Under the pieces are notes generated by a model. That model saw only the letters and a program-made list of their open reading frames with translations. It was not told where the DNA came from and ran no database searches. From Candidatus Eiseniibacteriota bacterium (GTDB lineage Bacteria > Eisenbacteria > RBG-16-71-46 > CAZAMP01): 64,000 nt of DNA. Location: NCBI GenBank assembly GCA_965224245.1, contig OZ245046.1, positions 4,704,001 to 4,768,000 on the forward strand, in the 5' to 3' direction. The translations under genes were made by a program, and so were the position numbers. Below are positions 1 to 45,350 of the stretch, piece by piece; positions within the stretch are counted from its first letter, which is position 1, and every line of letters starts with the position of its first letter.

Positions 1-763
1 GGTCGACCTGACGAACATCCCGACCTCGATGAACACGCTCGACGCGGCCACCACCGTGGGCGCCTTCACCCACAACTCGTGGACCGACGCCGAGAACGAG
101 TACTGCTACACCGGCGACGAGGTCAGCGGCGGCCCGGTGACGATCGTGAACGTGTCGAACCCGAGCAACATCTCGGTCGTCGGCTCGTGGTCGAACCCGG
201 ACGACCCCACCGCGACGATGCACAACGTCGTCGGCAAGGGCGACTACCTGTACATCGGGTGGTACCACTCGGGGTTCATCGTGCTCGACATCTCCGATCG
301 CGAGAATCCGTTTCGCACCGCGTACTACGACACGTACGCCGGCACCGGCAGCGGGTATGACGGCGGCTGGGGCTGCTACGTCGACGCGCCCTCGGGCAAC
401 ATCTACTACTCGGACATCAACAACGGCCTGTTCATCTTCGAGGTGGATCTCGGCATCGTGTCGGTGCCGGGCGCGTCGACTTCCACACCGATCCATCTGT
501 CGCCGGCCGCGCCGAACCCGATGCTGACCGAGGCGCTGATCCAGTTCGAGCTGAACGTGACCACCGAGGCACGGCTCACCGTGTACGACGCCCGCGGACG
601 ATTCGTGCGCGATCTCATGGACGGGGCACTCGGGGCGGGACCGCACGCGGTCACCTGGGATGCCCGCGACGCGAGCGGCAAGGCCACTTCGCCGGGCGTC
701 TACTACGTCACGCTGACGTCGGACGGCACGCGGCAGACGCAGAAGATCGTCCGCGCCCGGTAG
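1..763 (+). CDS. 5'-truncated secreted protein, LVIVD/choice-of-anchor-B-like repeats with C-terminal FlgD-Ig/T9SS-like sorting domain
   Basis: Frame is open to the window start. Repeat-like motifs HNSW, HNVVGKGDYLYIGWYHSG and YYDTY...GGWG, then PNP...VYDARGRFVR...WDARD..G...SPGVYY...QKIVRAR tail. Confidence 0.7.
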   Translation, partial: VDLTNIPTSMNTLDAATTVGAFTHNSWTDAENEYCYTGDEVSGGPVTIVNVSNPSNISVVGSWSNPDDPTATMHNVVGKGDYLYIGWYHSGFIVLDISDRENPFRTAYYDTYAGTGSGYDGGWGCYVDAPSGNIYYSDINNGLFIFEVDLGIVSVPGASTSTPIHLSPAAPNPMLTEALIQFELNVTTEARLTVYDARGRFVRDLMDGALGAGPHAVTWDARDASGKATSPGVYYVTLTSDGTRQTQKIVRAR

Positions 764-4453: not shown

Positions 4454-4531
4454 GGGTCGTCACCTCCGGAGTGTTCGTATCGCGCGTCGGCGCGGGGCGC
4501 CTGGCCCCGCCCGGGATTTCGTCGGCGCGGG

Positions 4532-4560
4532 ATTCTATCGGCTCGGGGCGCCGCTGCCAA
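4532..4560 (-). promoter_or_regulatory. sigma70-type promoter for htpG
   Basis: Minus strand TTGGCA-N17-TAGAAT, ~80 bp upstream of the ATG. No CIRCE element seen. Confidence 0.5.
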
Positions 4561-4581
4561 GCCGGGCCGTCGGGCCGGGCC

Positions 4582-5688: not shown

Positions 5689-5824
5689 GGGCTCGGTCCT
5701 CGCGTCGACCCGGGGACACCTCACGATCCCACAATCCCGCTCCCGAGGTCTAGACATCGCCGCGGTGGCGAACGAAGATCGTCTCGACGTGCCCTCGACC
5801 CCACGCGCGGAAGGAACATCCGAC

Positions 5825-25872: not shown

Positions 25873-27006
25873 GTGGATCTCGTGGACTTGCGTCATCGCC
25901 TGCATCGCTCTGCAGAGCCCAGCGGGGATGAGCGCGAGACGGCCGCGCTGATCGCCGACGCCCTCCGCGAGGCAGACGCCGACGAGCTCGTCACCGGCCT
26001 CGGCGGTCACGGGGTCGCCGCGGTGTTCGAGAGCGACACCCCCGGTCCCGTGGTGCTCCTTCGCGCCGAGCTCGACGGGCTGCCCATTCCCGATCGACCC
26101 GATCTCGAGTACGCGTCGGCACGATCGGGCGTCTCTCACAAGTGCGGACACGACGGCCACCTGACGATTCTCGTGGGCGCCGCCCGCGTTCTCGGCGAGC
26201 GCCGGCCCGTGCGAGGCCGGTGCATCGTGCTCGCGCAGCCGTCCGAGGAGAACGGCGCCGGCGCCCGACGGGTGCTGGACGATCCCGGGTTCACGCCGCT
26301 CCGACCCGATCGCTGTGCCGCGCTCCACAACCTCCCGGGCTTCCCGATGGGATCGGTGGTGATCCGCGCCGGCGCGTTCGCGAGCGCGTCGACCGGCCTC
26401 GTCGTCGAGCTGGAGGGCGCGACCAGCCACGCCGCCGAGCCCCGCGCGGGACGCAGCCCCGGGCTCGCGGTCGCCGAGCTGATCACGGGCTTCGGCGCGC
26501 TGCCCCAGAACGCCACCGACTTCACCGAATCGTCCAAGGTGACCATCGTGCACGCGCGCCTCGGGGAGCCGGCGTTCGGCACCAGCCCCGGCACCGCACG
26601 CGTGCTGGCCACGTTCCGGGCCCATACCCAGCCGGTGCTGGACCGGCTGCTCGATCGCGCGAGGCGCCTCGTCGACGGAACGGCGACCAAGTACGACCTC
26701 GAGGCCCGCGTCGAGCTGACCGAGACGTTTCCGGCCACCGTCAACGACCCGTCCCTGGTGGACGCGGTGCGGTCGGCGGTGTCGTCGGCCGGTCACCCGA
26801 TCGTCGAGCCCGAGCATCCGTTCCCGTGGTCCGAGGACTTCGGCCACTTCACCGCCGGCTCGCCCGGAATCCTGTTCGGGATCGGCTCGGGCGAGGATCA
26901 TCCCGCGCTCCACCACCCGAGCTACGATTTCCCGGACGCGCTGATCCCGACGGGCGTCGACGTCCTGATGCGGATCGCCGACGCCCTCGCGGACCATCCA
27001 TCATGA
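25873..27006 (+). CDS. M20D-family amidohydrolase
   Basis: LRAELDGLP, HKCGHDGH, QPSEE, HN.PG, SEDF and LHHP.YDF motifs. Confidence 0.9.
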   Translation: MDLVDLRHRLHRSAEPSGDERETAALIADALREADADELVTGLGGHGVAAVFESDTPGPVVLLRAELDGLPIPDRPDLEYASARSGVSHKCGHDGHLTILVGAARVLGERRPVRGRCIVLAQPSEENGAGARRVLDDPGFTPLRPDRCAALHNLPGFPMGSVVIRAGAFASASTGLVVELEGATSHAAEPRAGRSPGLAVAELITGFGALPQNATDFTESSKVTIVHARLGEPAFGTSPGTARVLATFRAHTQPVLDRLLDRARRLVDGTATKYDLEARVELTETFPATVNDPSLVDAVRSAVSSAGHPIVEPEHPFPWSEDFGHFTAGSPGILFGIGSGEDHPALHHPSYDFPDALIPTGVDVLMRIADALADHPS

Positions 27007-28169
27007 CGATCCGGCCGTCGTCCCACATCGAGCTCAGCCGCGCCGCGCTGGCGCGGAACGTCCGGTTCGTCAAGGCGCTCATCGGCTCGAACGTGACGCT
27101 GTCGTCCGTGGTCAAGGGAAACGCCTACGGACATCAGATCGAGGCGTACGTGCCCCTGGCCGAGGCGTGCGGCATTCGCCACTTCAGCGTGTTCAGCGCG
27201 GCCGAGGCCGAGAGGGTGCTCGGCTGCCGGACCGCCGACAGCACGATCCTGATCATGGGCGACATCCACGACGCGGATCTCCCGTGGGCGGCATCGGAGG
27301 GCATCGAGGTGGTCGTGTTCGATCTCGATCGCCTGGACGCCGCGATCCGCGCCGCCCGGAAGGTGGGACGCGCGCTGGGCGTCCACCTCGAGGTGGAGAC
27401 CGGACTCCACCGGACGGGCCTCTCGCCGCGCTCGCTGGAGGCGGCCGCGAGGCGACTTCACAAGCACCCGCGCGACGTCCAGGCCGCCGGTGTGTGCACG
27501 CACCTCGTGGGGGCCGAGTCGTCGAACAACTTCCACCGGATCGATCAGCAGCTCGATCGCTTCCGCGAGGCCACCGCGCAACTCGCGGCGATGAACGTGG
27601 CCCCGCCCCGCCACGTCGCGTGCTCCGCCGCGACGCTCACCATGCCCGAGACCACGATGGACATGGTTCGCGTCGGCATCGCCCTCTACGGCTACTGGCC
27701 GAGCGAGGAGACGCGGTTTCGCTACCTGGCCCGCGGCACGCGCCGGCGATCACCGCGCTACTCGCCCCTGACCCCGATCCTCACCTGGCGGAGCCGCATC
27801 ATGAATCTCAAGTCCGTGCGCTCGGGGCAGTTCATCGGCTACGGGTCGGCCTACCAGGCGTCGCGGACGATGCGCGTGGCCGCGGTGCCGGTCGGCTACT
27901 ACCACGGGTTCGGGCGGGACCTCAGCAACCGGGGACGCGTGCTGGTGCGCGGGGCGCGCTGCGGCGTCGTCGGTCTCGTCAACATGAGCATGCTCATGGT
28001 CGACGTCAGCGAGATACGGGGTGTCTCGGTCGGGGACGAGGTCGTGATCATCGGAGCCCAGGGCGAGCATCAGATCTCGGTGGGCTCGTTCGGCGAGCTC
28101 ACGCACGTGCTGAACTACGAGGTGCTGGTGAGCCTGCCCCAGGAGATCCCGCGCGTCATCGTCGACTGA
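27003..28169 (+). CDS. alr: Alanine racemase family PLP enzyme (copy 1)
   Basis: VVKGNAYGH PLP-Lys, HLEVETGLHRTG, VRVGIALYG, IGYG, PVGY. ATGA-coupled to the amidohydrolase. Confidence 0.88.
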   Translation: MTIRPSSHIELSRAALARNVRFVKALIGSNVTLSSVVKGNAYGHQIEAYVPLAEACGIRHFSVFSAAEAERVLGCRTADSTILIMGDIHDADLPWAASEGIEVVVFDLDRLDAAIRAARKVGRALGVHLEVETGLHRTGLSPRSLEAAARRLHKHPRDVQAAGVCTHLVGAESSNNFHRIDQQLDRFREATAQLAAMNVAPPRHVACSAATLTMPETTMDMVRVGIALYGYWPSEETRFRYLARGTRRRSPRYSPLTPILTWRSRIMNLKSVRSGQFIGYGSAYQASRTMRVAAVPVGYYHGFGRDLSNRGRVLVRGARCGVVGLVNMSMLMVDVSEIRGVSVGDEVVIIGAQGEHQISVGSFGELTHVLNYEVLVSLPQEIPRVIVD

Positions 28170-28778: not shown

Positions 28779-30041
28779 TCACGTCGTGTACTCCGAGTTG
28801 ATCCGAACGTACTCCACCGTGAGATCCGTCGTCAGGCGGCGCGCCGTCTCGTCTCCGCTGCCGAGGCTGAGGACGCTGGTCACGCGCCGTTCGGTCATCG
28901 CGCGGGCGACCGCCTCTCGATCGTCACCGACCGGAGCCCCCCGGCGATACACGTCGACCCCGGCGATCGACAGCGTCACCCGAGTGAGATCGATCGGCAC
29001 GCCCGCGTTACCGGCCGCGGCCAGGATGCGGCCCCAGTTGGGATCGCCGCCCGCCAGCGCGGTCTTCACGAGCGGTGAGCGCACGACGGCCTCGGCCACG
29101 CGCCGGGCGTCGTCTCGGCTCCTGGCGCCGATCACCGACAGGTCGAGGATCCGAGACGCCCCCTCGCCGTCGTCGATGATCTGATCGGCGAGCGCGTCGG
29201 CGACGTGCTGCATGGCGCCCTCCAGCACCCGGAGTCGCGCGTCGTCGGTCGAGCCGATGTCCGGGACGTCGGCGCCGCCCGCCAGCACGAGGACTGCGTC
29301 GTTGGTGCTCGTGTCTCCGTCGACGCTGATCTGATTGAACGAGCGGTCGACCACGCGCCTGAGCATCCTGTTCAGGATGAGGGGTCGCACCGGCGCGTCG
29401 GTTCCGAGCACCGCGAGCATGGTAGCCATGTTCGGGTGAATCATGCCGCTCCCCTTCGCGGTGCCGCCAACGGTGACCATGGTAGCGGAGTTCGACCCGG
29501 AGGACGGCAGCGTCACCGTGACCGCGGCAGTCTTGCGCGTGGTGTCGGTGGTGAGAATGGCCTCGGCGACGTCCACGCCGGCGTCGGGACGCAGCCGGGA
29601 GGCGGCGTCCTCGATGCCGTCGAGCACGATCCGGCGCGGGAGCGGCACCCCGATCACGCCGGTCGACAGCACGAGTGCGGGCCCACCGACCGCAGCCGAC
29701 GTCATACGCGCCATCTCGCGCGCCGTGGCCAGTCCGTCGTCGCCGGTCATCGCGTTCGCGTTGCCTGAGTTGATGACGATCGAGCGAGCGGCCGCGCGAT
29801 CGCGGAGCTGTGCCGACGTCACGAGCACCGGCGCGGCGGCGAGTCTGTTCTGCGTGAAGACGCCGCACGCGGTCCGGACGCCGTCGGCCACGATCAGGGC
29901 GAGGTCGGGACCGCCGCTGGGCTTCAGGCCGCACGACACGCCGGCGCCCGAGAGACCGGGCACGCTGAGAAGCGTCCCATCCGGGATCGGCCGGATCGAC
30001 TCGTCCAGGGACGTGCCCGGCTCGAGATCGGCGGTGCTCAT
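28779..30041 (-). CDS. argJ: Bifunctional ornithine acetyltransferase ArgJ
   Basis: NSGNANA, STGVIG, ILTTD, KGSGMIHPNMATML, DGDTSTND, DGEG, DPNWGRI, YVRINSEYTT. Confidence 0.96.
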   Translation of the reverse strand: MSTADLEPGTSLDESIRPIPDGTLLSVPGLSGAGVSCGLKPSGGPDLALIVADGVRTACGVFTQNRLAAAPVLVTSAQLRDRAAARSIVINSGNANAMTGDDGLATAREMARMTSAAVGGPALVLSTGVIGVPLPRRIVLDGIEDAASRLRPDAGVDVAEAILTTDTTRKTAAVTVTLPSSGSNSATMVTVGGTAKGSGMIHPNMATMLAVLGTDAPVRPLILNRMLRRVVDRSFNQISVDGDTSTNDAVLVLAGGADVPDIGSTDDARLRVLEGAMQHVADALADQIIDDGEGASRILDLSVIGARSRDDARRVAEAVVRSPLVKTALAGGDPNWGRILAAAGNAGVPIDLTRVTLSIAGVDVYRRGAPVGDDREAVARAMTERRVTSVLSLGSGDETARRLTTDLTVEYVRINSEYTT

Positions 30042-30610
30042 GCGCGCACCTCCCGCCTCGCGAATCGGCGGGCCGCCGGGGCGTACCGCGGACGAAGAGG
30101 GGACCCGTTCGTGGCGTGCGGTGCCGGGCGAACCATCGTGACGCGGCGCCGTCCGTTGACCGTGGTGGCACGCTGGGGGCGCATCAGCTCCTCGCGTGAC
30201 GCGGATCGGGCGAACCCGAGACGTTCGAAGAAGTCCGGGCGCACGGTCACGCAGTACAGGCTTCGACCTCGGCCCGCGCAGCGCTCGGCGAGCGTGCGGA
30301 CGATCAGCGATCCCACGCCGGCCCCGCGCGCCGATCGGTCCACGGCCACGCTCCGGAGCTCGTACGCACCGCCGGCCAGCGGGTGCAGCGCACCCGCGCC
30401 GACCACGCGGCCGCTCGGACGCTCGCGCACCACCGAGAACAGATGCCAGCTCCGCCGCACGACCTGCTCGGACAGCGGGATCGTCTCCGGGGCCGATGCG
30501 GCGAGGAGGCGCGTGATCTCGCCAGCATCGGCCTGGGTCGCGGGCTCGAGTGTGAACGCGATCTCACCCGCGTCGGCCGGCGGCGTGGCCGGCCCATTCG
30601 TGCGCGTCAT
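30038..30610 (-). CDS. Short GNAT, ArgA-like N-acetylglutamate synthase
   Basis: ELRSVAV...RGAGVG, T.RPDFFERLGF; lies between argD and argJ with coupled start/stop codons. Confidence 0.7.
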   Translation of the reverse strand: MTRTNGPATPPADAGEIAFTLEPATQADAGEITRLLAASAPETIPLSEQVVRRSWHLFSVVRERPSGRVVGAGALHPLAGGAYELRSVAVDRSARGAGVGSLIVRTLAERCAGRGRSLYCVTVRPDFFERLGFARSASREELMRPQRATTVNGRRRVTMVRPAPHATNGSPLRPRYAPAARRFARREVRA

Positions 30611-31902
30611 CACGATGCACCTCGCGGGGTGTCGCTCGTGTCCGCCACGCGTTCCAGCGCCGACGAGAACCGGGTGACCGCCTCGTCGATCTCCGCGTCG
30701 GACACGTTGAGCGGCGGCAGGAACCGGATCACGTCGCCGCCCGTGGGGACGACGAGAAGCCGCTCGGCGAGCGCGGCCGCGAGCACGTCGGTCGAGCGCT
30801 CGGTCTCGACCCCGATCATCAGGCCGAGGCCGCGGACGTCGCGAACCAGGGGACTGTGGATCTCGGAGAGCGCGCGCCGGAGCCGCCGTCCCTTGCGCCG
30901 CACGTCCTCGAGGAAGGTCTCGTCGGCGACGGTGCGCAGGACGAAGAGAGCCACCGATGTGACCAACGGTCCGCCACCGAACGTCGAGCCGTGCATGCCG
31001 GGCGTCACCGAGTCGGCCACGCGCGGTCCGAGGAGCGTCGCACCGATCGGGAGGCCGCCCGCGAGCGGCTTGGCCAGTGTCATGACGTCCGGCGTCACAC
31101 CGAGCTGCTCGTGTGCCCACAGGGCTCCGGTCCGTCCGAGCCCGCATTGCACCTCGTCGAAAACGAGCAGCGCACCCACGTCGTCGCATCGGCGACGGAT
31201 CGCGGCGAGCCACTCCGGATCGGCGGGGCGGATGCCGGATTCGCCCTGCACGGGCTCGAGCATGACGGCGGCCGTGGCCGGACTCAGACGATCGAGCGCG
31301 CTCGCGTCGTTCCAGGGCAGCCGCGCATAGCCGCCCGGCAGCGGCGTGAACGGCTCGCGGTGGTCGGGTCGGTCGGTGGCCGCCAGTGCACCCATCGTCC
31401 GACCGTGGAACGCGCCGCCGGCGTAGAGGATCTCGCGTCGTTGTGGGCCACCTCGGAGCCGGGCGAACTTGATCGCCGCCTCGTTGGCCTCGGCCCCGGA
31501 GTTCGCGAAGAACACGCGCGAGGCGAACGATCGCTCGACCAGGGCGGTCGCCAGCTCGATCGGAGGCTGCGTGTGATAGAGGTTCGACGTATGAACGAGC
31601 CCCTCGGCCGCGGCCCGAAGCGGTTCCCGGATGCCGCCGTGTCCGAGAGCCGTGACCGCGATCCCGCTGGTCATGTCGAGGTGACGCACGCCGGTGGAAT
31701 CGACGAGCCAGGCGCCCTCGCCCGCGACGAAGAGGACGTCCGGACGTACGTAGGTCCCGGCGAGGTTCGCGTGCGCCCGCGCGAGGCACGGATCGGGAGC
31801 CGGGGCGCTGGCCGTGTTCGCACCGGCGTCGGTCGTGCTCGCGCCGGTGGCGCTCGTGTCGGTCGTGCGGCGCGTGTGCGCGCTGGTGTCGGTCGTGCTC
31901 AT
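30610..31902 (-). CDS. argD: Acetylornithine aminotransferase
   Basis: SGIAVTALGH, HTSNLY, NSGAEANEAA, FHGRT, EPVQGESG, DEVQCGLGRTG, LAKPL, HGSTFGG. Confidence 0.93.
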   Translation of the reverse strand: MSTTDTSAHTRRTTDTSATGASTTDAGANTASAPAPDPCLARAHANLAGTYVRPDVLFVAGEGAWLVDSTGVRHLDMTSGIAVTALGHGGIREPLRAAAEGLVHTSNLYHTQPPIELATALVERSFASRVFFANSGAEANEAAIKFARLRGGPQRREILYAGGAFHGRTMGALAATDRPDHREPFTPLPGGYARLPWNDASALDRLSPATAAVMLEPVQGESGIRPADPEWLAAIRRRCDDVGALLVFDEVQCGLGRTGALWAHEQLGVTPDVMTLAKPLAGGLPIGATLLGPRVADSVTPGMHGSTFGGGPLVTSVALFVLRTVADETFLEDVRRKGRRLRRALSEIHSPLVRDVRGLGLMIGVETERSTDVLAAALAERLLVVPTGGDVIRFLPPLNVSDAEIDEAVTRFSSALERVADTSDTPRGAS

Positions 31903-32672
31903 GCGGTGAGTTCCGTGGCGGTGCCGGCCTGCATGCCCTGCAGGGTTCCGACGCGTATCTGGCGGACGCCGGCCTCGGAGGCGGCGATGGCCGAGCGCAG
32001 CTTCGGGATCATGCCGCCCGACACGACGTCGGGTCGCTCGAGGAGCGCGCGGGCCTCGGACACGTGAAGACGACTGGCGAAGCCACCGTCGGACGCGTCG
32101 GTGCGCACTCCCGGAACGTCGCTGACGAACTCCAGTCGGTCGGCGTGGATCGCCGACGCGATCGCGTCGGCCGCCATGTCGGCGTTCACGTTGACCGCGG
32201 ATTCGTCGGGACCCAGCGCCACCGGCGCGACGACCGGCGCAACCCCGAGCTCCAGCAACGCCTCCAGAGAGATCGCGGCCGTCTCCGGTCGCCCGCCGAC
32301 GCGACCCAGCCGCGCGCCGTCGATCAACGGTGCCCGCAGGAGCCCGAGATCGATTCCCGAGAAGCCCAGCGCGGGCACGCCGCGACGGACGAGCTCGGCG
32401 ACCAGCCGCTTGTTCACGAGACCGCATAGCACCATCACGGTGATGTCCATGCCTTCGGGCGAGGTCACGCGCAGTCCGTCGACCGTCTGATGCGCGACAC
32501 CCATCACATCGTGGAGCTTCCCGATGGCGGCTCCCCCACCGTGGACGAGCACGATGCGCTCGCCCGATCGGAAGCGGCGTCCGACGTAGTCGCAGAACTC
32601 CTGGACGTACGCCTCGCGCTCGAGATTGGCGCCTCCGACCTTGATGACCGTCGTGGTCATGTCCTTCGCCAC
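31899..32672 (-). CDS. argB: Acetylglutamate kinase
   Basis: VIKVGG, VHGGG, GLRVT, NVNAD, SDVPGV, GGMIPK. GTG start chosen from the GGAGG RBS. Confidence 0.92.
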   Translation of the reverse strand: MAKDMTTTVIKVGGANLEREAYVQEFCDYVGRRFRSGERIVLVHGGGAAIGKLHDVMGVAHQTVDGLRVTSPEGMDITVMVLCGLVNKRLVAELVRRGVPALGFSGIDLGLLRAPLIDGARLGRVGGRPETAAISLEALLELGVAPVVAPVALGPDESAVNVNADMAADAIASAIHADRLEFVSDVPGVRTDASDGGFASRLHVSEARALLERPDVVSGGMIPKLRSAIAASEAGVRQIRVGTLQGMQAGTATELTA

Positions 32673-32697
32673 GATCACCTCCATCCGGGCGGGCACG

Positions 32698-33747
32698 TCA
32701 CGCGGCCGCAGTGGGCAACGCGAGCCCGGTCGTCTCGGGCATGCCCCACATCACGTTGAAGTTCTGAATGGCCTGTCCGGCCGCACCCTTGGTCAGGTTG
32801 TCCAGTGCGCCGGTGATCACGACGTGGTCGGTTCCCTCGACGTCGTGCACCGAGAGCTGGACCTGGTTCGTCCGGGCCACCGCGCGAATGCGCGCCTCGC
32901 GACCGGGTGGGAGCACCTGGATGAAGGGCTCGTGCCGGTAGCGCTCGAACAGGACCGCGCGCACGCGCCCGGCGTCTCCGTCCGGGGTGCGCACGACGAT
33001 GGTTGACTGAATGCCCCGCTCGATCGGAGCGAGGTGCGGTGTGAACACGATCCGGTGCGATCGGCGTCCGACGCCGTCGAGAAACTGCTCGATCTCGGCC
33101 ACGTGCCGGTGTGAGCGACCGTGCTTGTACGCGCTGAGATCCTCGGACACGGCGCAGAAGTGGGTGCGTGCGGTCGGCACGCGTCCGGCCCCGGACACAC
33201 CCGACTTCGCGTCGATCACGGGATGGTCCTCCGCGAGGCCCTCGGCGGCGAGCGGTCCCAGCGCGATCTCCGACAGCGTCGCGAAGCAGCCCGGGTTCGC
33301 GACGACGGTCGCTCCGGCGAGCGCGGGGCGCACGTACTCGGTGAGCCCGTACACGGCATCGCGCGCCACCGAGTCCGAGCGCGGTGAGCCGTACACGGCC
33401 TCGTGGCTTCGCGGGTCCTTCAACCGGTGATCGCCCGAGAGGTCGACGACGCGCGCGTGCTCGACGCACCGGGCCGCGAGGTCGCCTGCGGTGCCGTGCG
33501 GCACGGCGAGGAAGACGGCGGCCGCCGACCGGACGTCGGCGTCGTCGGGATGCACGAGGGGGATCGGCGTCGCCGCCGGGTCGATCTCGTCCAGCGTCGA
33601 GCCGGCGTGCGCGCGCGACGTCGCGAACGAGAGCTCGACCGCGGGATGGGCGGCCAGAAGCGTCACGAGCTCGGTCCCGCTGGTCCCGCTCGCGCCGAAC
33701 ACGCCGACGGGAATGCGAGCATGCGGTCGTCGAGTGGTGTCTGTCAC
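32698..33747 (-). CDS. argC: N-acetyl-gamma-glutamyl-phosphate reductase
   Basis: GASG..G, DLSGDHR, ANPGCF, SGVSGAG, HRH..EI, DNLTKGAAGQA. Confidence 0.95.
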   Translation of the reverse strand: MTDTTRRPHARIPVGVFGASGTSGTELVTLLAAHPAVELSFATSRAHAGSTLDEIDPAATPIPLVHPDDADVRSAAAVFLAVPHGTAGDLAARCVEHARVVDLSGDHRLKDPRSHEAVYGSPRSDSVARDAVYGLTEYVRPALAGATVVANPGCFATLSEIALGPLAAEGLAEDHPVIDAKSGVSGAGRVPTARTHFCAVSEDLSAYKHGRSHRHVAEIEQFLDGVGRRSHRIVFTPHLAPIERGIQSTIVVRTPDGDAGRVRAVLFERYRHEPFIQVLPPGREARIRAVARTNQVQLSVHDVEGTDHVVITGALDNLTKGAAGQAIQNFNVMWGMPETTGLALPTAAA

Positions 33748-33814
33748 GTTCGATGCTCCAGGTGGTTGGGCGGTCGGCCGTTGAGTCGCCGGCCGACTTC
33801 CGGTAGTCGAGGTT

Positions 33815-33830
33815 TGCAAGGCGTGTGCCG
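33815..33830 (-). promoter_or_regulatory. sigma54 promoter for argC-B-D-A-J
   Basis: Minus strand CGGCACACGCCTTGCA (GG-N10-GC), ~70 bp upstream of argC. Confidence 0.8.
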
Positions 33831-33871
33831 GGGCGCCCAGAGCGCGCCGGAGCGCCCGCCTGGGCCCCCTC

Positions 33872-33903
33872 TGACCCAACGATGGGTCACGGGCGTCCCG
33901 ATC
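33872..33903. promoter_or_regulatory. Dyad, candidate enhancer site
   Basis: Perfect dyad TGACCCA-ACGA-TGGGTCA followed by CGGGCGTCCCGAT; a near-copy lies at 38454-38484. Confidence 0.65.
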
Positions 33904-33935: not shown

Positions 33936-35144
33936 TCATCGCGTGACGAAGCGCGGGATCGAGGCCGGCAGCCGGCACGCGAACTCCGTGTTCAGCGCCG
34001 ACGTCATCTCGGCGAACGAGCTGATCGGGATGACGTGGTGCTTCTGCCGTCCCACGAGGACGACCTCGTCTCCGACGGCGACGTCCGCGATCGCCGTCAC
34101 GTCTACCATGAACAGGTTCATGTTCACGTGCCCCACCACCGGTGCGCGCCGCCCCCTCACGAGGACGGTGCCGCGATTGGACATCTCGCGAGGGTATCCG
34201 TTGGCGTATCCGACCGGGATCACAGCCAGCGTCATGTCCCGCGGCGCCTGATACGCCGTGCCGTAGCCGACGAACTCGTCCTGCCGGACGCACTTGAGAT
34301 GCATGACGTCGGTCTTCCAGGTGAGCACGCGCTGAAGCGGGTTCTCGCGCGCGTCGCTGGAGCGCAGGCGGTGGAGGTTTCGCATCTCGGGGCTCGGCCA
34401 GAATCCGTAGGACGCGACCCCGATCCGGACGAGGTCCATCGCGGCCTCCGGGCGCGACAGCGCTGCCGCCGAGGACGCGACGTGATAGCGTTCGGGACCG
34501 GTTCGTCTTCTCCTGAGCTTGGCCTCGATCTCCTTGAATCGCGTGATCTGCCGCACGATCCGGAAGTCGTTGGCGAGCGACTCCGCTCCGGCCAGATGCG
34601 TGCAGAGCCCGGCCCAGACCAGGTGCCGCCGGTTCTGGCCGAAGATGCGGAGCGCACGCGGGAGCTCGTCCAGCGGGAGTCCCGTGCGGTTCCCGCCGGT
34701 CTCGATCTCGAGATGAACGCGCGCCGGCCTCCCGACCGCCTTGGCGACCGACACCGCGCACTCGAGGCGCGGCAGGTCGTAGACGAAGAACTCGATGTCG
34801 TTATCGATCACCCACCGGAGGTCCTCGTCGTAGAGGATGCCCATGATCATGATCTTGCTCGCCTGCGACTTGACCTCGTCGACGAGGCTCGCTTCGAGCG
34901 ACGAGGCCACCGAGAAGTGCCGGACGTCACACGACTCGGCGATGCCGACGATGGGCTGGATGCCGTGCCCGTACGCGTTCGCCTTCACCACGACCGACAG
35001 GATCGGATGCGGCCCCACGCGCGACCGCACGTACGAGAGGTTGTTCCGGAACGCCGCGCGGCTCAGCTCGATCCGCGACGAGTGCCGGACGGGCGAGCCG
35101 GCGAGATCGCCCGGCTCGGGCCGCGGATCGTTCACGAGTGCCAT
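33936..35144 (-). CDS. alr: Alanine racemase family PLP enzyme (copy 2)
   Basis: VVKANAYGHG, HLEIETGGNRTG, THLAGAES, VRIG, VGYG, PVGYANG. Confidence 0.88.
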   Translation of the reverse strand: MALVNDPRPEPGDLAGSPVRHSSRIELSRAAFRNNLSYVRSRVGPHPILSVVVKANAYGHGIQPIVGIAESCDVRHFSVASSLEASLVDEVKSQASKIMIMGILYDEDLRWVIDNDIEFFVYDLPRLECAVSVAKAVGRPARVHLEIETGGNRTGLPLDELPRALRIFGQNRRHLVWAGLCTHLAGAESLANDFRIVRQITRFKEIEAKLRRRRTGPERYHVASSAAALSRPEAAMDLVRIGVASYGFWPSPEMRNLHRLRSSDARENPLQRVLTWKTDVMHLKCVRQDEFVGYGTAYQAPRDMTLAVIPVGYANGYPREMSNRGTVLVRGRRAPVVGHVNMNLFMVDVTAIADVAVGDEVVLVGRQKHHVIPISSFAEMTSALNTEFACRLPASIPRFVTR

Positions 35145-37102
35145 GTGTAGGACCGTCCCCAGGACGAGGCCGCCCGGCCGCTCACATGGGACACGAGGGT
35201 GTCCGGCACGGCATACGCGTCGCCCTCTTCCTGCGGATCGAAATGGAACGCGTAGAGTCGTGAGACGAAGTCGTCGATCCCGAGCGACGACTCGCCCGGC
35301 CGCTCGCCGTGTCCGAAGACGCTGGGCTCCACGCCGTCGCCCCAGTCCTGGCGGCCCTCGTCGTTCGGATTGAAGAAGTACACGCGGACGGTGTCGTCGG
35401 GGCGCTTGGCGATGCGCTGGATCGAGACGGCGTGCGGACCCAGGAGACGGCCGTGCACGTCGGTCACCATGATCCCGACCGGGTTGGGATACACGAGCTC
35501 GTGCCCATCGTTGTAGTCGGGGTGGTGGGTCGCGTAGAAGCGGCGCACGAACAGCGAATGGTGGCTCACGGTGACGGAGCTCGGATCCAGCGCCGACGCG
35601 AACCCGGGTGCGACCCACCGGCCGTACATTGCCGGGTTCACCCAGCGATGGGGATCGGTGTTCCGCCCGGCGGCCAGGCCCAGCATCGTCGCGTAGATCC
35701 GGTCCAGGTGGGGCACGAGCAGGAGCGACACCGGATCCAGATCCGATCCCGACTCCCCCGACGCCACGTCGGCGCACCGATCCGATCGCAGCTCCTGTCC
35801 CTCGAACTCGGCGGCCACGAAACCATCGCGGGCCGCGTTGGCGATCTTGCCCAGGAGCATTCCCGGTGCGTGCAGGCTCCAGAGGCTGATGCCTCGCGCC
35901 GCCTGGCACGTGGGACTGTTGCCTTGCCCGACGCCGAGCGGGAGACCCAGCACCAGGATCGCCCCGGAAACGAGGATGGCGTTCTCGGAGAGGCCTTCGT
36001 TCTCGGGTCGTGTCCGGATCAGCCGATCGGCCACGTCCGACAGCACGTCGAGCTGCAGCAGTCGCCGCAGCCCGGCCGCCACCTCCGGCCTCGCGAGAAG
36101 ATGGCGCTCGAGCAGCCCGACGAGTCCGAGGATCGTACGATGCGTGCCGGGGAAGACGGCCGCCTTCACGAGTGCGGCCGGGAGCTCGCCGCACTTGGCC
36201 GCGTGGGCGGCACCGGCCTCGTCGGCGCCGATCGCATCGCCGAGCTGCTCGGGCATGCGCCGCGCGACCGCCCGGAGCGCCACCGCGTGATAAGGGCTCG
36301 TGAGCCCGACCTCGCGCAACGACGCGCCGAAGCGCCGGCACTCCTGGAGGACTTCCCCGTCGTCGCACTCCGCGAGGCGCCGGCGATACGTGACCGGGTC
36401 GCCCGCCGCGGCGGCCAGTGGCGTCGCCGCCCCGAGGGCGGCGCCGTAGCTTCGGAGGGCGTCGCGAGCGCCGGGATCGGCGTCGGCGTCGGGCAGCAGC
36501 GCGGCCTGATCGACCAGGGTCGTGATTCGCGAATCCCGCACCGGTCTCTGAACGGTCATCAACCGGATCTCCTCGACCACGCTGGTCAGAAGCCTGTCGA
36601 GCGACAGCACGTCGCGGATCGCCGCGAACAGCCGCTCGGCGCGGTCGTAGAGCTTCGGTTGTCGGCGGCTCGCCTCGGAGTCCGCGGGGAACATCAGGTC
36701 CAGCGATCGCACGCAGACCTCGCGAAGGAAGCCCGCGGCATCCTCGGCCGAGAGATCGGGGTGATCGACGTCGCCGCGCGCGATCGCGAGCAGCCGGAGC
36801 TCGCTCATCGCCTCGACCGTCGGATAGACGCCGTCGCCGAGGAGCCCGTATCGGACGAGATCGGGCAGAAGCTTCGTCACGTCCTCCCACGGCCCACCGC
36901 GAAAGACCCCCACCGCGTCGAAGCGAGGGGCGCGTTCGAGGAGCGCCGCGAGGCCGCCATCGGTGTCCAGGAGATCGGAGCCCGCGGCGAACACCGGCTC
37001 CTGGTAACGGGCCTTCGCGAACGCGGGAGCGCGGTCGAGCTTCTCGATCGCCGCATCGAGCCTCGCCAGCGCCCCGGTGGACTCACGGGTCTCATGGGTC
37101 AT
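35132..37102 (-). CDS. Conserved hypothetical 656-aa protein with putative C-terminal papain/calpain-like Cys-His-Asn domain
   Basis: GQGNSPTCQAA, PHAVSI and YFFNPN in calpain-like order. ATGA-coupled to the ATP-grasp gene. Confidence 0.65.
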   Translation of the reverse strand: MTHETRESTGALARLDAAIEKLDRAPAFAKARYQEPVFAAGSDLLDTDGGLAALLERAPRFDAVGVFRGGPWEDVTKLLPDLVRYGLLGDGVYPTVEAMSELRLLAIARGDVDHPDLSAEDAAGFLREVCVRSLDLMFPADSEASRRQPKLYDRAERLFAAIRDVLSLDRLLTSVVEEIRLMTVQRPVRDSRITTLVDQAALLPDADADPGARDALRSYGAALGAATPLAAAAGDPVTYRRRLAECDDGEVLQECRRFGASLREVGLTSPYHAVALRAVARRMPEQLGDAIGADEAGAAHAAKCGELPAALVKAAVFPGTHRTILGLVGLLERHLLARPEVAAGLRRLLQLDVLSDVADRLIRTRPENEGLSENAILVSGAILVLGLPLGVGQGNSPTCQAARGISLWSLHAPGMLLGKIANAARDGFVAAEFEGQELRSDRCADVASGESGSDLDPVSLLLVPHLDRIYATMLGLAAGRNTDPHRWVNPAMYGRWVAPGFASALDPSSVTVSHHSLFVRRFYATHHPDYNDGHELVYPNPVGIMVTDVHGRLLGPHAVSIQRIAKRPDDTVRVYFFNPNDEGRQDWGDGVEPSVFGHGERPGESSLGIDDFVSRLYAFHFDPQEEGDAYAVPDTLVSHVSGRAASSWGRSYTWHS

Positions 37103-38349
37103 ACGTAGAAGTCCATCTCCTCGTAGCGGAGCAGGATCTCGCGAAGGCGATCGGGGTCGTCACCGAGAAAGTCCACCTTGCCGTAGTGGTCGCCGAAGCC
37201 AGCGCGCTCGCGGACCTTGGGCGTCACGGGCTCGAACAGGTTGTGACCGATGAAGTAGGGCTCGTCCTCGAGCGCCGGTGGAATCCGGAGCTCGTGCACC
37301 ATCGGCTTCTTCGGGTAGACGAGGAGGTTGCCCGCGTGGCCGCGCCGGCCCGTGACCTCGTCCGGGAAGAACGCCTCCAGCTCTTCGTCGGTGGTCAACG
37401 GATCGGACACGAGGATCTGCCCGGCGAATGCGTCGAAGCCGTAGGCCCGCTCGATCAGCTCGAAGATGTGCCCACCCGGAATGCGGGCGGCGACCTCGCC
37501 GAAGTTCAGCTCGCCGTCCTGATCCAGGAAGTACTCGGGGTGCAGGATGCCGTAGCGCACGCCGAACGACTTCACCAGATGCTCGACCGCCTTCCGGATG
37601 CGCGGCCGCACCTGCTCGAGCCGCGGCGTGGGCGGCATGAGCTGCGAGTGCCCGAGGTGCACGTACTCGTTGATGTTCAGGAAGCGAATGCGTCCGTCGT
37701 GCACGAAGACCTCGCACGAGAACTCCTGGCCGTTCAGGTGACTCTCCACGAGGCAGGGGAACGTGTCTTCGCCGAGGTCGTCGATGTCCTCCGGCGAACG
37801 GATCATTCGGTGACCGACGCTGCCCGCGGCGGATATGGGCTTCAGATGGACCGGAAACGGCGCCTCGCCCTCCAGCACGACCTCGGCCTCGTTGACGCGG
37901 GTGAAGAACCGGCGGACGGCGGCCCGCGAGTCGACCTCCTCGAACACGCCGACGCGAATGCCGCTCATCTGCGCCTTGCGCTTCATCATCGCCTTGTCGC
38001 GAAACAGGAGAGATCGATTGAACACGCGCGGGTCGTCACGGAACTCGGCGTTCAGCGCGCCGGCCCACTCGACGGTCTCCTCGTAGAGCGGCACCGCCAG
38101 CCGGACCTCGCGATCGGCAAGCATCCCCGAGAGCCGATGCGACTTCTCGTCCAGCCGATCGAACTCCCAGGGCACGGTCTCGATCCCGTCCCGTTCGGTC
38201 AATGCAGCGTAGTCCGGCGGCACGACGGCGACGAACCGATAGCCGAGGCGGGACGCCGCCTCCAGCGACTCGATGCAGTATCCGAGCAACGCGATCTTCC
38301 CCGGTCTTCCTGCGACGTTCGGAACGCCGCCGTGACCGTTGGCTTCCAT
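37099..38349 (-). CDS. ATP-grasp carboxylate-amine (amino-acid/peptide) ligase
   Basis: DKAMMK, LKP..AAGS.G, ESHL.GQEFSCE, HPEYF, FGEVAARIPGG; RBS AAAGGA. Confidence 0.85.
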   Translation of the reverse strand: MEANGHGGVPNVAGRPGKIALLGYCIESLEAASRLGYRFVAVVPPDYAALTERDGIETVPWEFDRLDEKSHRLSGMLADREVRLAVPLYEETVEWAGALNAEFRDDPRVFNRSLLFRDKAMMKRKAQMSGIRVGVFEEVDSRAAVRRFFTRVNEAEVVLEGEAPFPVHLKPISAAGSVGHRMIRSPEDIDDLGEDTFPCLVESHLNGQEFSCEVFVHDGRIRFLNINEYVHLGHSQLMPPTPRLEQVRPRIRKAVEHLVKSFGVRYGILHPEYFLDQDGELNFGEVAARIPGGHIFELIERAYGFDAFAGQILVSDPLTTDEELEAFFPDEVTGRRGHAGNLLVYPKKPMVHELRIPPALEDEPYFIGHNLFEPVTPKVRERAGFGDHYGKVDFLGDDPDRLREILLRYEEMDFYV

Positions 38350-38397
38350 GACGGGAGTCCTTTCTTCGGATCGGAAACGGATGTCGTTGCACAGTGC

Positions 38398-38413
38398 CGC
38401 AATTGACATGCCA
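38398..38413 (-). promoter_or_regulatory. sigma54 promoter for ATP-grasp / 656-aa / alr operon
   Basis: Minus strand TGGCATGTCAATTGCG (GG-N10-GC), ~50 bp upstream of the ATG. Confidence 0.85.
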
Positions 38414-38453
38414 TGCGTCGAGCTGTGATCATGTCGGCTGGATCGGTCGTCGA

Positions 38454-38484
38454 TGTCCCAATCGATGGGCCACGCGCGTCCGAT
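38454..38484. promoter_or_regulatory. Dyad, candidate enhancer site (second copy)
   Basis: TGTCCCA-ATCGA-TGGGCCA followed by CGCGCGTCCGAT; nearly the same offset from the sigma54 box as the 33872 copy. Confidence 0.65.
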
Positions 38485-38504
38485 ACCGCCCAGACGAGAC
38501 ACGT

Positions 38505-39956
38505 ATGTCCCCCGCAGACGCCCCTACCGAGAGCCGCACCCCCGCGAGAGTCGCGGTTCTGAACGCAGAGAAGCTCGAGGACGCCCTGGCCGACGATGCG
38601 CGCATGCTGCCGTCGCGCTTTCGCGACCTCGACACGCTCCTCGACCAGGCGCGCGAGATCCCGCCCCGTCTGTGTCTTCTCGGACCGGGGCTCAGCCCCG
38701 AGGAAATGCGCGAGCGCGTGGCCAGCCTGCGGCGGCACCTCCCGTTCACCGACGTCGTCGTCTGGCATCCCCGCGCGCCGGCCGAGGTCGTGCGGGCGGC
38801 GCTCCTCTCGGGGGCACGCGACGTTCTGCTCGACCCCGATCCCGCGCGCGCGGTCGTGCGGCTGCGGGATCTCCTCGAAGGGCAGCGGCTTCTTCCGCTG
38901 GTGCTCGCCGAGGAGGATCGAAGTGGCGGACGCTGGCGATTCGAGGGGCTCGTCTCCCGGAACCGCGAGATGTGGAGCATCTTCGAGACCGTGGCCCGGA
39001 CCGCATCGACCGACGCGACGATCCTCATTCTCGGCGAGACCGGCACCGGGAAGGACCTCGTGGCCCGCGCGATTCACGCGCGATCCGGGCGGCCGGGACG
39101 CTTCGTGGCCCTCAACTGCGGTGCCATTCCCGAGACGCTCATCGATTCCGAGCTGTTCGGACACGTCGAGGGCGCGTTCACCGGGGCCAAGGGATCCAAG
39201 CGCGGGCTCATCCGTCATGCCGAGGCCGGGACGCTGTTCCTCGACGAGATCGGAAACCTGCCGCAGGACGCCCAGAGCCGGCTGCTTCGCGTGCTGCAGA
39301 ACGGGGTGGTCCGCCCGGTCGGCGGCGAGGAAGAGCATCCGGTGGATGCGCGCGTGATCGCGGCCACGAGCAGCCCGCTGGACACCGCAGTCATGGATGG
39401 CACGTTCCGCGAGGATCTGCTCTATCGCATCGACGTGATCCGCCTGATCATTCCGCCACTCCGGGAACGTCTCGAGGATCTGATCTTCCTGTTCGGCATG
39501 TTCCTTCAGGAGCTTACCGAGCAGTACAACTGTGCGCGACCGAAGCTCGGCGACGACTTTCTCGACGCGCTGCAGGCGTACGAGTGGCCAGGAAACGTGC
39601 GCGAGCTCGAGAACTTCACCGAACGGCTCGTGCTCGCGCACTCGGGCTCACGCGTCACGCGCACTCACTTCCGCAAGCTCACGCGCACTTACCGCGGCCG
39701 GCAGAACGACGGCATCTCCGACGAGGACGATCGTGACGCGTCGCCGCGCGTGGCCGCCGCGTTCGATCCCGATCGAACGCTGGACGAGGTCACATCGGAG
39801 ATCGTGTCGGAGACCGAGCGTGCGTATCTCGAAGGCCTTCTGGCACATACGTCCGGTCGCGTGGGCGCCGCGGCCGAGCAGGCCGGCATCAGTCGCCGCA
39901 CGCTGCACCGGAAGCTCTCGCGTCACGGGATCGACAAGCGTCGCTTTCGTGGTTGA
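38505..39956 (+). CDS. sigma54-dependent enhancer-binding protein with degenerate receiver-like N-terminus
   Basis: GETGTGKD, SELFGH.EGAFTGA, FLDEIG, FREDL.YR, WPGNVREL, C-terminal HTH. Confidence 0.92.
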   Translation: MSPADAPTESRTPARVAVLNAEKLEDALADDARMLPSRFRDLDTLLDQAREIPPRLCLLGPGLSPEEMRERVASLRRHLPFTDVVVWHPRAPAEVVRAALLSGARDVLLDPDPARAVVRLRDLLEGQRLLPLVLAEEDRSGGRWRFEGLVSRNREMWSIFETVARTASTDATILILGETGTGKDLVARAIHARSGRPGRFVALNCGAIPETLIDSELFGHVEGAFTGAKGSKRGLIRHAEAGTLFLDEIGNLPQDAQSRLLRVLQNGVVRPVGGEEEHPVDARVIAATSSPLDTAVMDGTFREDLLYRIDVIRLIIPPLRERLEDLIFLFGMFLQELTEQYNCARPKLGDDFLDALQAYEWPGNVRELENFTERLVLAHSGSRVTRTHFRKLTRTYRGRQNDGISDEDDRDASPRVAAAFDPDRTLDEVTSEIVSETERAYLEGLLAHTSGRVGAAAEQAGISRRTLHRKLSRHGIDKRRFRG

Positions 39957-40158: not shown

Positions 40159-41316
40159 ATGAATCGCATCCTCATCAACCTGGATGCTCTCCACCACAAC
40201 ATCGAACGCGTCAACGAGCTGATGGCGGGTCACGGGGCCTCCTGGTCGCTCGTCACGAAGGTGCTGTGCGGACACACCGACACGATCCGCGCGCTGCGCG
40301 CGCTCGGTATCCGTTCGGTGGCCGACTCGCGCATCCGCAACCTGGATGCGGTCCGAGAGGTCGATCCGGACGTCGAGACGTGGTACCTGCGTCTTCCACA
40401 CATGACGGCCGTTCCCGACATCGTGCGCACGTCCAGCGTCTCGCTGAACAGCGAGATCGAGACCATCGAGGCGCTCAGCGAGGAGGCCGCGCGCCACGAC
40501 CGGTCGCACGGCGTGGTCGTCATGATCGAGCTGGGTGACCTGCGCGAAGGCGTGCTCCCCGGGTCGCTGATCGACTTCTATCGCCGTATCTTCCAGCTCG
40601 GGAACCTGCGGATCGTCGGCATCGGCGCCAACGTCGGATGCCTCTCGGGCACCGTGCCCAACGTGGATCAGTTCGTCCAGCTCATGCTCTACAAGGAGCT
40701 GCTCGAGCTGAAGTTCGAGCAGAAGCTCCCCCTGATCTCCGCCGGCACGAGCGTCGTGCTTCCGCTTCTCCTCGAGGGGTCGCTGCCCAGGGGCATCAAT
40801 CACTTCCGCATCGGTGAGGCGGTCTTTCTCGGCACCGATCTCGTCAACGGCGGCACCCTTCCCGGATTCCGCGACGACGCGATCACCGTGGAGGCCGAGA
40901 TCGCCGAGATCAAGGAGAAGGGGCTCACGCCCCTGGGCGACGTCACCGCCACCACGCCGTTCGAGTCGTTCCAGACCGACGACGCGCCGTCGCCGGGCGA
41001 GCGCGGCTTCCGGGCCGTCATCACGCTGGGGCAGCTCGACACCGAGGTACAGGGTCTGACGCCCGTCGATGCATCGCATCGCGTCGCCGGCGCCAGCAGC
41101 GACCTGACCGTGGTCAACCTCGGCCCGGACACCGGCGGACTCCACATCGGCGACGTGATCCGCTTCCGCCCCAACTACGGCGCCACGCTGCGGCTCATGA
41201 CGAACAAGTACATGGCCCGCGAGGTCACACCCTCCCTCGAGCGCTTCACCGCCGGCCTCGATCACGCGCTGCCGCACTCGTCGGTCATCGCCTCGTTCGG
41301 CGGTAATCCTCTCTAG
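40159..41316 (+). CDS. Alanine/ornithine racemase family PLP enzyme (Orr-like)
   Basis: VTKVLCG, ADSRIRNL, SLNSE, MIELGDLREG, GANVGC, ISAGTS, INHFRIGEA, GASSD. Confidence 0.82.
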   Translation: MNRILINLDALHHNIERVNELMAGHGASWSLVTKVLCGHTDTIRALRALGIRSVADSRIRNLDAVREVDPDVETWYLRLPHMTAVPDIVRTSSVSLNSEIETIEALSEEAARHDRSHGVVVMIELGDLREGVLPGSLIDFYRRIFQLGNLRIVGIGANVGCLSGTVPNVDQFVQLMLYKELLELKFEQKLPLISAGTSVVLPLLLEGSLPRGINHFRIGEAVFLGTDLVNGGTLPGFRDDAITVEAEIAEIKEKGLTPLGDVTATTPFESFQTDDAPSPGERGFRAVITLGQLDTEVQGLTPVDASHRVAGASSDLTVVNLGPDTGGLHIGDVIRFRPNYGATLRLMTNKYMAREVTPSLERFTAGLDHALPHSSVIASFGGNPL

Positions 41317-44339: not shown

Positions 44340-45350
44340 TCACCGCTCCTCGCGCGCCGGCCGATCGACGAAGGAGATCGCGCGGGTGCCGCTCGCGAAG
44401 TCGTCCATTGACAGCTTCCAGCCCTCGCCGGGCCAGAGATACTCGACGGCCAGACGAGCCGGGTCGTAGACGGCGGTGTAGAGTGTTCCGAACCCGCGCG
44501 AGTAGCTCGTGTTGTAGAGCGGCGGCTCCAGGAACGCGTCGACCAGTCGTGCGCGGTCAATGCCCGGATTCTCGACCAGGCTCGCCAGCCTCGACTCCCG
44601 CGCCAGCGTGGCCGTCGCGGCGGCGTGGCGCGGCCACACGATGCGCTCCTGATGGTTCGTCGAGATGGCCGAGCGCGTCAGGCGCGGGGTCGCGTCCGGT
44701 CCGACGAACGCGGTCACGTGATCGCCGTGTCGATCCAGCACGAGCACGTTGTACGCCATGTGGAACGGCACGCGCATCAGAGCACGCTCGGCGTCGGCCG
44801 TCGTCTCGCACACCTCGAGGAGATACCGGAGGACGATGGGAGCCCCGAAGCCGACACCGGTTCCCTCCTTGCCCCCGAAGGCGAGCGACACCGCCAGGCC
44901 GGCGTCGTTGATTCCGTCGAGGACCCCGACCAGTCCGTCGGTCGACGCGATCACCGAGCGCGCCGACCAGCGACTCTTCAGGAAGACGCCCTCGAAGAGC
45001 TTCGGGCTGAAGTCGTAGTTGCGCACGAGAAAGGCCCGCTCTCGGCGACACGCCGCCTGCGAGCACGACGACAGGTACGGTGGCGGGCAGTACAGGCTCA
45101 GGAACCGGGCCTCGAGGTCGCCGCCTCCGACGAGCTCGACGAGTCGCTCCCAGATGGGCACGAGCTCGGGCATGAAGCGCCGGAGCGCCGACTCGCACGC
45201 CAGGTAGCTCGGCCGCGTGGCGTCCCCGCGAGACAGATACCAGCGGCGGTAGTCGGGCCAGAGCCCGGTGAACAGTGATCGCCACGCGTCTCCCGGGGAC
45301 GCCTCCTCCACGGCCCGGAACACGAACTCGGTGGTCTCGGGATCGCTCAC
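44340..45350 (-). CDS. C45-family Ntn-hydrolase/acyltransferase
   Basis: MPEL, CSQA nucleophile, LVRNYD, DGINDAGL.VSL, STNHQ, GFGTLYT. Confidence 0.82.
   Translation of the reverse strand: MSDPETTEFVFRAVEEASPGDAWRSLFTGLWPDYRRWYLSRGDATRPSYLACESALRRFMPELVPIWERLVELVGGGDLEARFLSLYCPPPYLSSCSQAACRRERAFLVRNYDFSPKLFEGVFLKSRWSARSVIASTDGLVGVLDGINDAGLAVSLAFGGKEGTGVGFGAPIVLRYLLEVCETTADAERALMRVPFHMAYNVLVLDRHGDHVTAFVGPDATPRLTRSAISTNHQERIVWPRHAAATATLARESRLASLVENPGIDRARLVDAFLEPPLYNTSYSRGFGTLYTAVYDPARLAVEYLWPGEGWKLSMDDFASGTRAISFVDRPAREER

Follow-up and report, generated by a model that had tools for sequence, protein, structure and literature searches.

A protein family with a predicted papain-like domain encoded beside an ATP-grasp ligase in Candidatus Eiseniibacteriota and other bacteria

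Results

The locus and the 656-residue protein

We analyzed a stretch of 64,000 nucleotides (nt), hereafter the window, from the genome of a Candidatus Eiseniibacteriota bacterium (GenBank assembly GCA_965224245.1, contig OZ245046.1, positions 4,704,001 to 4,768,000 of the forward strand), which encodes on its minus strand a hypothetical protein of 656 amino acids (aa) directly behind an ATP-grasp ligase (Table 1). The start codon of the 656-aa gene and the stop codon of the ligase gene overlap as ATGA, as proposed in the original prediction, a reading of this DNA from its letters that took the two genes to be translationally coupled, and the gene of an alanine-racemase paralogue, next downstream, in turn begins within the end of the 656-aa gene. 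The same prediction, whose span of 35340-35930 takes in the catalytic part of the gene only, had pointed to a papain- or calpain-like set of catalytic residues in the motifs GQGNSPTC (residues 392-399), PHAVSI (556-561), and YFFNPN (575-580), and the positions that it gave for the Cys, His, and Asn codons, with the Gln six residues ahead of the Cys, all match the translation of the open reading frame (ORF).

Table 1. Features of the window in and around the 656-aa gene, by position in the window
Feature	Position	Strand	Basis or remark
656-aa protein (P0001)	35132..37102	-	ORF and translation; stop codon included
N-terminal all-helical domain, residues 1-386	35945..37102	-	predicted model; fold not assigned
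Predicted C-terminal papain-like (clan CA, calpain-like) catalytic domain, residues 387-656	35135..35944	-	
Gln393 (CAA), putative oxyanion-hole residue, six before Cys	35924..35926	-	conservation
Cys399 (TGC), putative nucleophile, directly before helix 400-411	35906..35908	-	conservation and model
His557 (CAC), putative general base, within strand 553-566	35432..35434	-	conservation and model
Asn578 (AAT), putative third triad residue, just past strand 572-577	35369..35371	-	conservation and model
ATP-grasp ligase, 416 aa from ATG at 38349	37099..38349	-	Pfam ATP-grasp_4, solved L-amino acid ligases
Alanine-racemase paralogue (alr)	33936..35144	-	TIGR00492, 266.5 bits against a cut-off of 168
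argC, argB, argD, GNAT, argJ	28779..33879	-	NCBIfam
Divergent sigma-54-dependent activator	38394..39956	+	Sigma54_activat (3.3e-62) and HTH_8
Sigma-54-type -24/-12 element TGGCATgtcaaTTGC, roughly 50 nt ahead of the ligase start codon	38399..38413	-	
Second sigma-54-type -24/-12 element, just upstream of argC	33816-33830	-	
M20 amidohydrolase	25873-27003	+	TIGR01891, 192 bits, over cut-off
C45-family autoproteolytic acyltransferase/hydrolase, 6 kb from the pair	44343-45752	-	
1074-aa ORF, middle Orn/Lys/Arg decarboxylase-like	46834-50058	-	far under cut-offs

Conservation of the putative catalytic residues

Scoring of 8000 candidates gave 813 homologues of the 656-aa protein at E <= 1e-3, and relatives are encoded in at least 580 stretches of a collection that holds one genome per species; among the 120 homologues listed, the names given by the sources are 'hypothetical protein' throughout. 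Gln393, Cys399, His557, Asn578, and Asn580 are invariant in 28 diverse full-length homologues (38-69% identical). Across 48 C-terminal domains, 42-63% identical to that of the window and including paralogues, 40 of 282 alignment columns are invariant, and all four residues of the original prediction are among them, a pattern beyond chance. This conservation persists in a broader, maximally diverse sample, in which each of 54 clusters at 50% identity is represented by one sequence, some of them fragments (28-55% identical); here Gln393 and Cys399 are present in 54/54, His557 in 53/54, and Asn578 and Asn580 in 52/54 each. Cys399 is also the only conserved cysteine among the six of the window protein, at 100% as compared to 3-14% for the others in 36 sequences, and invariant columns are concentrated in the C-terminal domain (46/270) relative to the N-terminal domain (16/386). 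Some representatives of about 589-624 aa end without the last 30 or so residues.

The few exceptions bear on the assignment of the third member of the triad. At position 578, the two exceptions among the 54 representatives are one Asp and one Ser, while at position 580 they are one Gln and one His. Aspartate is the usual alternative to asparagine in papain-like triads, and we prefer Asn578 to Asn580 because the Asn-to-Asp change is seen at the former, though Asn580, being conserved equally, may be an alternative candidate.

Predicted fold and structural relatives

The full-length AlphaFold model (mean predicted local distance difference test, pLDDT, 88.5; predicted template modeling score, pTM, 0.84) consists of helices only up to residue 386, in line with the large helical N-domain suggested previously. 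Beyond this point, Cys399 abuts helix 400-411, His557 lies in strand 553-566, and Asn578 follows just after strand 572-577. A second model, built for residues 375-656 from 48 sequences, agrees (pLDDT 88.7, pTM 0.88). In the models, a Gln thus comes six residues ahead of a Cys placed at a helix N-terminus, followed by a strand-borne His and then an Asn on a neighboring strand in the order Cys-His-Asn. Together with structural similarity to solved members, these are among the features by which clan CA of cysteine peptidases is recognized.

Structural comparison of the models returned papain-like enzymes for every match that was not simply helical, with calpain protease cores closest across the whole domain. 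Using Foldseek, the full model matched calpain cores on top, albeit weakly (E about 1e-2), whereas for the domain model calpain cores were the first 19 among the matches listed (best 1ziv, E 5.6e-4), with alignments of about 280 columns and template modeling (TM) scores of 0.36-0.41; most of the matches listed after these belong to cathepsin B, Der p 1, bleomycin hydrolase, and staphopain. A VIA-align comparison of the domain model with 48,161 chains listed 50 matches, all of them papain-like enzymes, and in a second look with VIA, calpain cores were the top 17 among the matches listed. Calpain-core alignments from Foldseek and the second VIA look covered 195-215 of 282 residues, and the two-subdomain protease core that characterizes calpains (MEROPS family C2) is the nearest fold to the predicted domain. 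In the VIA-align ranges for human bleomycin hydrolase (7v5s), residues 11..255 of the model correspond to 59..432 of the chain, such that, provided no gap falls within the first 14 aligned residues, Cys399 (domain residue 25) would pair with Cys73; the title of the 7v5s entry names a C73A mutant. The N-domain resembles solved structures in short helical hairpins only, at about residues 167-225.

The original prediction stated that it would be undermined if the residues proved unconserved or if no papain-like fold emerged; both outcomes were looked for, and neither occurred. Its comparison with calpain holds for the order of the residues and for the predicted fold, but not at the level of sequence profiles, where no link to calpain was found.

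Sequence searches and family status

The 656-aa protein belongs to no Pfam or NCBIfam family. A search of 1.84 billion cluster representatives with the family profile gave 305 matches, and the 150 representatives listed are all family members or fragments thereof, the longest being 745 aa. Calpain family C2 (PF00648) gave no match in the 28 diverse homologues at E <= 10, nor in the window protein at E <= 0.1. The same Pfam family gave no matches in the 206 genomes of the window's own phylum, including its own genome, at a threshold where the controls stayed silent too, so that this is no sign of absence; in five actinomycete genomes there was one sub-threshold match. With the full-length profile, a search of the PDB yielded 8 weak helical matches only (E >= 0.32). 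The nearest named clusters in the ESM Atlas, which serve as leads only, were RHS_repeat/LysM (0.76) and Peptidase_C2 (0.75), with no named cluster for the N-domain.

Since no sequence-level tie to any known family was found, we regard these proteins as a separate family with a predicted clan-CA fold, outside C2, C39, and C83. No description of the family or of its pairing with an ATP-grasp ligase was found in the literature, a search that did not cover the 2009 survey of ATP-grasp contexts.

The ATP-grasp partner

The ligase of the window matches Pfam ATP-grasp_4 (E 2.9e-9; 37.2 bits against a cut-off of 27), and its nearest solved chain is 4wd3, an 'L-amino acid ligase' (E 4.7e-8), with 3vot also listed; NCBIfam matches are all far under their cut-offs, the best reaching 52 bits against 625. 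Its most likely start is the ATG at 38349, which is preceded by a purine-rich stretch. We examined the neighborhoods of 80 of the at least 580 loci, in three of which the upstream DNA was too short to judge the pairing. An ATP-grasp homologue lies immediately upstream and on the same strand in 70/77 evaluable loci, at a median estimated gap of 54 nt. These ligase homologues are 44-68% identical to that of the window (36-sequence alignment), and across 36 loci the pairwise distances among the ligases correlate with those among their 656-aa partners (r = 0.74; permutations as high, 0/2000), which shows joint inheritance and not contact. Fusions of the ligase with a 656-aa-sized partner are absent from the 150 representatives listed and from proteins of 1149-3280 residues, the latter being weak evidence.

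Seven loci have no adjacent ligase, comprising six solo copies and one in Methylophaga (L047), which has a second, ligase-linked family copy nearby. In three solo loci of Bacillota (L034, L036, and L038), a divergent M20 'dipeptidase' lies alongside (about 4270-5700, minus strand), that of L034 scoring 720 bits against a cut-off of 441 for PRK08201. One of these loci, L036, also carries a CBS-PAS sigma-54 activator that is PrdR-like under the cut-off.

Distribution and neighborhoods in other genomes

In a tree of 48 C-terminal domains, the sequences of Nocardia and Mycolicibacter (L049, L070) fall inside a gammaproteobacterial clade with starred support, which suggests transfer between phyla, and ligase-less copies arise more than once. 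A metagenome-assembled genome (MAG) of Desulfobacteraceae also contributes a sequence to this clade. The family is carried by 5/206 genomes of the window's own phylum, and because of this patchy presence and the nesting in the tree, it would seem to be an accessory, horizontally moved module. Many of its carriers belong to genera of salt lakes, saline soils, or the sea, namely Halobacillus, Pontibacillus, Planococcus, Vreelandella/Halomonas, Marinobacter, Wenzhouxiangella, and Fodinibius.

Genes with a connection to osmotic stress adjoin some of these loci. The Methylophaga copy that has no adjacent ligase follows genes for ectoine synthase and an MscS-type mechanosensitive channel (L047, 3408-7929), an MscK-like channel gene is found downstream in a ligase-bearing Vreelandella locus (L046, 8832-12179), and a Na+/H+ exchanger is encoded at another solo-copy locus (L039, 9180-10874). 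As for the remaining neighbors, 10 of the 80 loci (from Myxococcota, Planctomycetota, and unclassified MAGs) have a related sigma-54 activator close to the pair, and 9 have a deacetylase-family gene adjoining it. A GNAT acetyltransferase-family gene directly precedes the ligase in 8 loci, and in one more (L010) such a gene directly follows the 656-aa gene. An alanine racemase follows directly downstream of the 656-aa gene in 5 loci other than that of the window, while arginine-biosynthesis genes are near the pair in some loci and missing from most. No other shared neighbor was seen in the Bacillota, gammaproteobacterial, and actinomycete loci annotated or screened.

Operon and surroundings in the window

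The minus-strand order at the locus is ATP-grasp, 656-aa protein, alr, argC, argB, argD, GNAT, and argJ, the four arginine genes scoring above their NCBIfam cut-offs (bits/cut-off: argC 320/233.6, argB 186/151, argD 415/410, ArgJ 427/351). We considered whether they form a dedicated second copy, which is ruled out for this genome: its only argC over the cut-off is the one behind the pair, and the housekeeping arginine operon therefore sits downstream of the pair and alr. The idea of the pair as a replacement for carbamoyl-phosphate synthetase was likewise set aside, as the genome has a normal carB at another site.

Upstream of the ligase is a divergent sigma-54-dependent activator, whose true start is probably later than 38394, and beyond it are an Orr-like racemase and a sodium/solute symporter. 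The two sigma-54-type elements in Table 1 have one mismatch each to the consensus. Matches of this type occur window-wide at chance frequency (41 as compared to 38 expected), so that these candidate elements are supported by their position and, for that at 38399..38413, by the divergent activator. Three pyridoxal phosphate (PLP) racemase genes are found within 15 kb, namely alr at 33936-35144 (-), a second alr at 27021-28166 (+), and the Orr-like gene at 40159-41316 (+), the last scoring 278.6 bits, under the cut-off of 480; the genome has three alr-family genes, two of them within the window.

Further features of the window include an M20 amidohydrolase gene, which ends where the second alr begins and whose product also resembles the N-acetyl-diaminobutyrate deacetylase DoeB2 under the cut-off. 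Distant relatives of the C45-family protein (25-26% identical) are encoded divergently beside the ligase in Pontibacillus (L003, 3266-4315, minus strand; also L005 and L006). The 1074-aa ORF has a long unexplained N-terminal extension.

Discussion

A proposed thiol amidase or transpeptidase paired with a putative amide-forming ligase

From the conserved residues, the predicted fold, and the gene pairing, we infer catalysis by the 656-aa protein, its substrate, and the outcome of the reaction by hydrolysis or by transfer. On balance, and with moderate confidence, we read it as a member of a new clan-CA family, a thiol amidase or transpeptidase that acts on the product of its partner ligase. The protein would be a cytoplasmic two-domain enzyme in which a helical N-domain precedes a very divergent papain-like C-domain, with Cys399 as nucleophile, His557 as base, Asn578 orienting the histidine, and Gln393 contributing to the oxyanion hole. 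The ligase would couple a carboxylate with an amine at the expense of ATP, yielding a small peptide, such as a dipeptide, or an N-acyl amino acid. An amide in this product, or in the compound that precedes it, could then be attacked by Cys399 to give a thioester, which would be resolved either by water, as in an amidase or peptidase with a role in trimming or turnover, or by an amine, as in a transpeptidase.

Judging by gene context, the substrates are probably small peptides or N-acyl amino acids, and we lean toward hydrolysis or trimming over transfer, because the ligase-less copies keep the catalytic residues and adjoin dipeptidases. The M20 amidohydrolase and three PLP racemases near the pair in the window were counted toward this leaning, as were the GNAT and deacetylase-family neighbors in other loci.

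Several results weigh against assigning the family to the papain-like enzymes and to this role. In the 28 members, Pfam at E <= 10 gave no papain-like family, returning instead 14 unrelated families, each from a single member, and sequence and profile searches of the PDB gave no match for either the protein or the C-domain profile. The 48-sequence domain profile reached an hhalign probability of 0.6% against 19 C39 domains. A divergent member of 611 aa (P0175) keeps the Gln and Cys but has neither His557 nor Asn578. Finally, neighbors other than the ligase vary by lineage, and context therefore fixes no substrate. As to the divergent member, it has Leu at the position of His557 and Ser at that of Asn578, other invariant positions are changed too, it is among the representatives without the last residues, and it may be an inactive offshoot.

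Alternative explanations

The main rival to an enzyme acting on the small product of the ligase is a protein-directed peptidase, whereby the ATP-grasp enzyme would tag a protein with an amino acid or peptide and the cysteine domain would erase the tag. Tubulin tyrosine ligase and its cysteine carboxypeptidase form such a writer/eraser pair. The nearest folds to the predicted domain (calpain, C39, UfSP, ZUFSP, and staphopain) act on proteins or peptides, and a helical N-domain of such size might serve to bind a protein. In addition, PMC3495828 describes predicted bacterial pairings of this kind, with tags placed by an ATP-grasp ligase and taken off by a transglutaminase-like peptidase. However, the ligase here is like the free-amino-acid ligases 4wd3 and 3vot, not of the RimK, tubulin tyrosine ligase, or circularly permuted ATP-grasp type. 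No Alpha-E domain was found by Pfam, and hhalign of the full-length profile against 6 such domains, a small alignment, gave a probability of 0.2%; nor was a conserved third gene for a target protein seen in the 80 loci. We thus consider tag removal distinctly unlikely. A similarly small likelihood attaches to a papain-fold acyltransferase or amide synthase, in which Cys399 would accept an acyl group from an acyl-phosphate, a thioester, or the ligase product and give it to an amine. Papain-fold enzymes that transfer acyl groups do exist, BtrH and phytochelatin synthase being examples in PMC10318531, but structural scores for such matches are no better than for peptidases, no conserved carrier-protein or thioester-forming gene is nearby, and the ligase-less copies beside a dipeptidase suggest breakdown rather than synthesis.

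The Cys-His domain might instead split glutamine and supply ammonia with which the ATP-grasp enzyme amidates a carboxylate, an arrangement found in the small and large subunits of carbamoyl-phosphate synthetase. This proposal is an analogy only, given that ATP-grasp enzymes with a cysteine amidotransferase partner exist, although the arginine-biosynthesis neighbors in the window would fit nitrogen chemistry. We regard it as very improbable in view of the normal carB noted above, the lack of nearby arginine genes in most loci, and the absence of any glutamine amidotransferase among the VIA-align matches listed. Least probable of all, to the point of being nearly dismissible, is that the protein has kept a papain-like shape without catalysis and serves the ligase as a scaffold or regulator. 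While the loss of both His557 and Asn578 from the divergent 611-aa member would be consistent with such a role, conservation of the protein is highest in the C-domain, and Gln393, Cys399, and His557 are retained almost without exception down to 28% identity.

Possible biological role

Returning to the amidase or transpeptidase that we favor, the product of the ligase could be an unrecognized osmolyte or nitrogen store, an idea that we raise because carriers are often saline or marine bacteria and osmotic-stress genes adjoin some loci. A more specific version, which we think unlikely, is that the pair constitutes an undescribed two-enzyme pathway, horizontally spread mainly among salt-adapted bacteria, for a solute of the small-peptide or N-acyl-amino-acid type. 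Here the calpain-like domain would be a biosynthetic transpeptidase or acyltransferase acting through a thioester on Cys399, in the manner of phytochelatin synthase, and not a protease. As several carriers are cultured strains, direct testing is possible.

Comparison with known systems

In overall shape, the predicted catalytic domain is nearest to the calpain core (C2, PF00648; 6bjd, 1ziv, 7w7o, and 2p0r). Nevertheless, identity to calpains in structural alignments is about 12-14% and there is no PF00648 match; the family has none of the calpain accessory domains, carrying instead a helical N-domain of 386 residues and being paired with a ligase, and its motif is NPN where that of calpain is NPW. 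The C39 peptidases of bacteriocin ATP-binding cassette (ABC) exporters (ComA 5xe8, PCAT1 8vp3, and LahT 6mpz) cover only about half of the C-domain, in keeping with the very low hhalign probability given above; there is no Pfam match to C39 (PF03412), and neither an ABC transporter nor a leader peptide was seen nearby. The original prediction had offered phytochelatin synthase as its parallel. In that family (C83, including Alr0975; 2btw and 6tho) the third triad residue is Asp, and the 28 members of the family described here have no PF05023 match, which places them outside C83.

At the level of the gene pair, Iyer et al. in 2009 reportedly predicted bacterial systems of ATP-grasp, Alpha-E, and transglutaminase-like peptidase components. 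The present pair is like these systems, as cited in PMC3495828 and PMC10318531, in the genetic coupling of an ATP-grasp ligase to a putative thiol peptidase of the papain superfamily, for which a role in undoing what the ligase makes is predicted. It differs in having a ligase of the ATP-grasp_4, L-amino-acid-ligase-like type, with neither Alpha-E (PF04168) nor Transglut_core detected in the 28 members at E <= 10.

In function, the closest parallel to a ligase that works with a thiol amidase may be the glutathionylspermidine synthetase/amidase of Escherichia coli, in which an ATP-driven amide synthetase is fused to a Cys-His (CHAP) amidase that cleaves the same amide. This likeness is one of description, as there a single fusion carries a CHAP domain, whereas here two genes are involved and the domain is calpain-like. 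More generally, the available evidence is consistent with an apparently unnamed family, without detectable sequence kin, that would add to the papain-like superfamily a new member tied to an ATP-grasp ligase that is probably of the free-amino-acid type.

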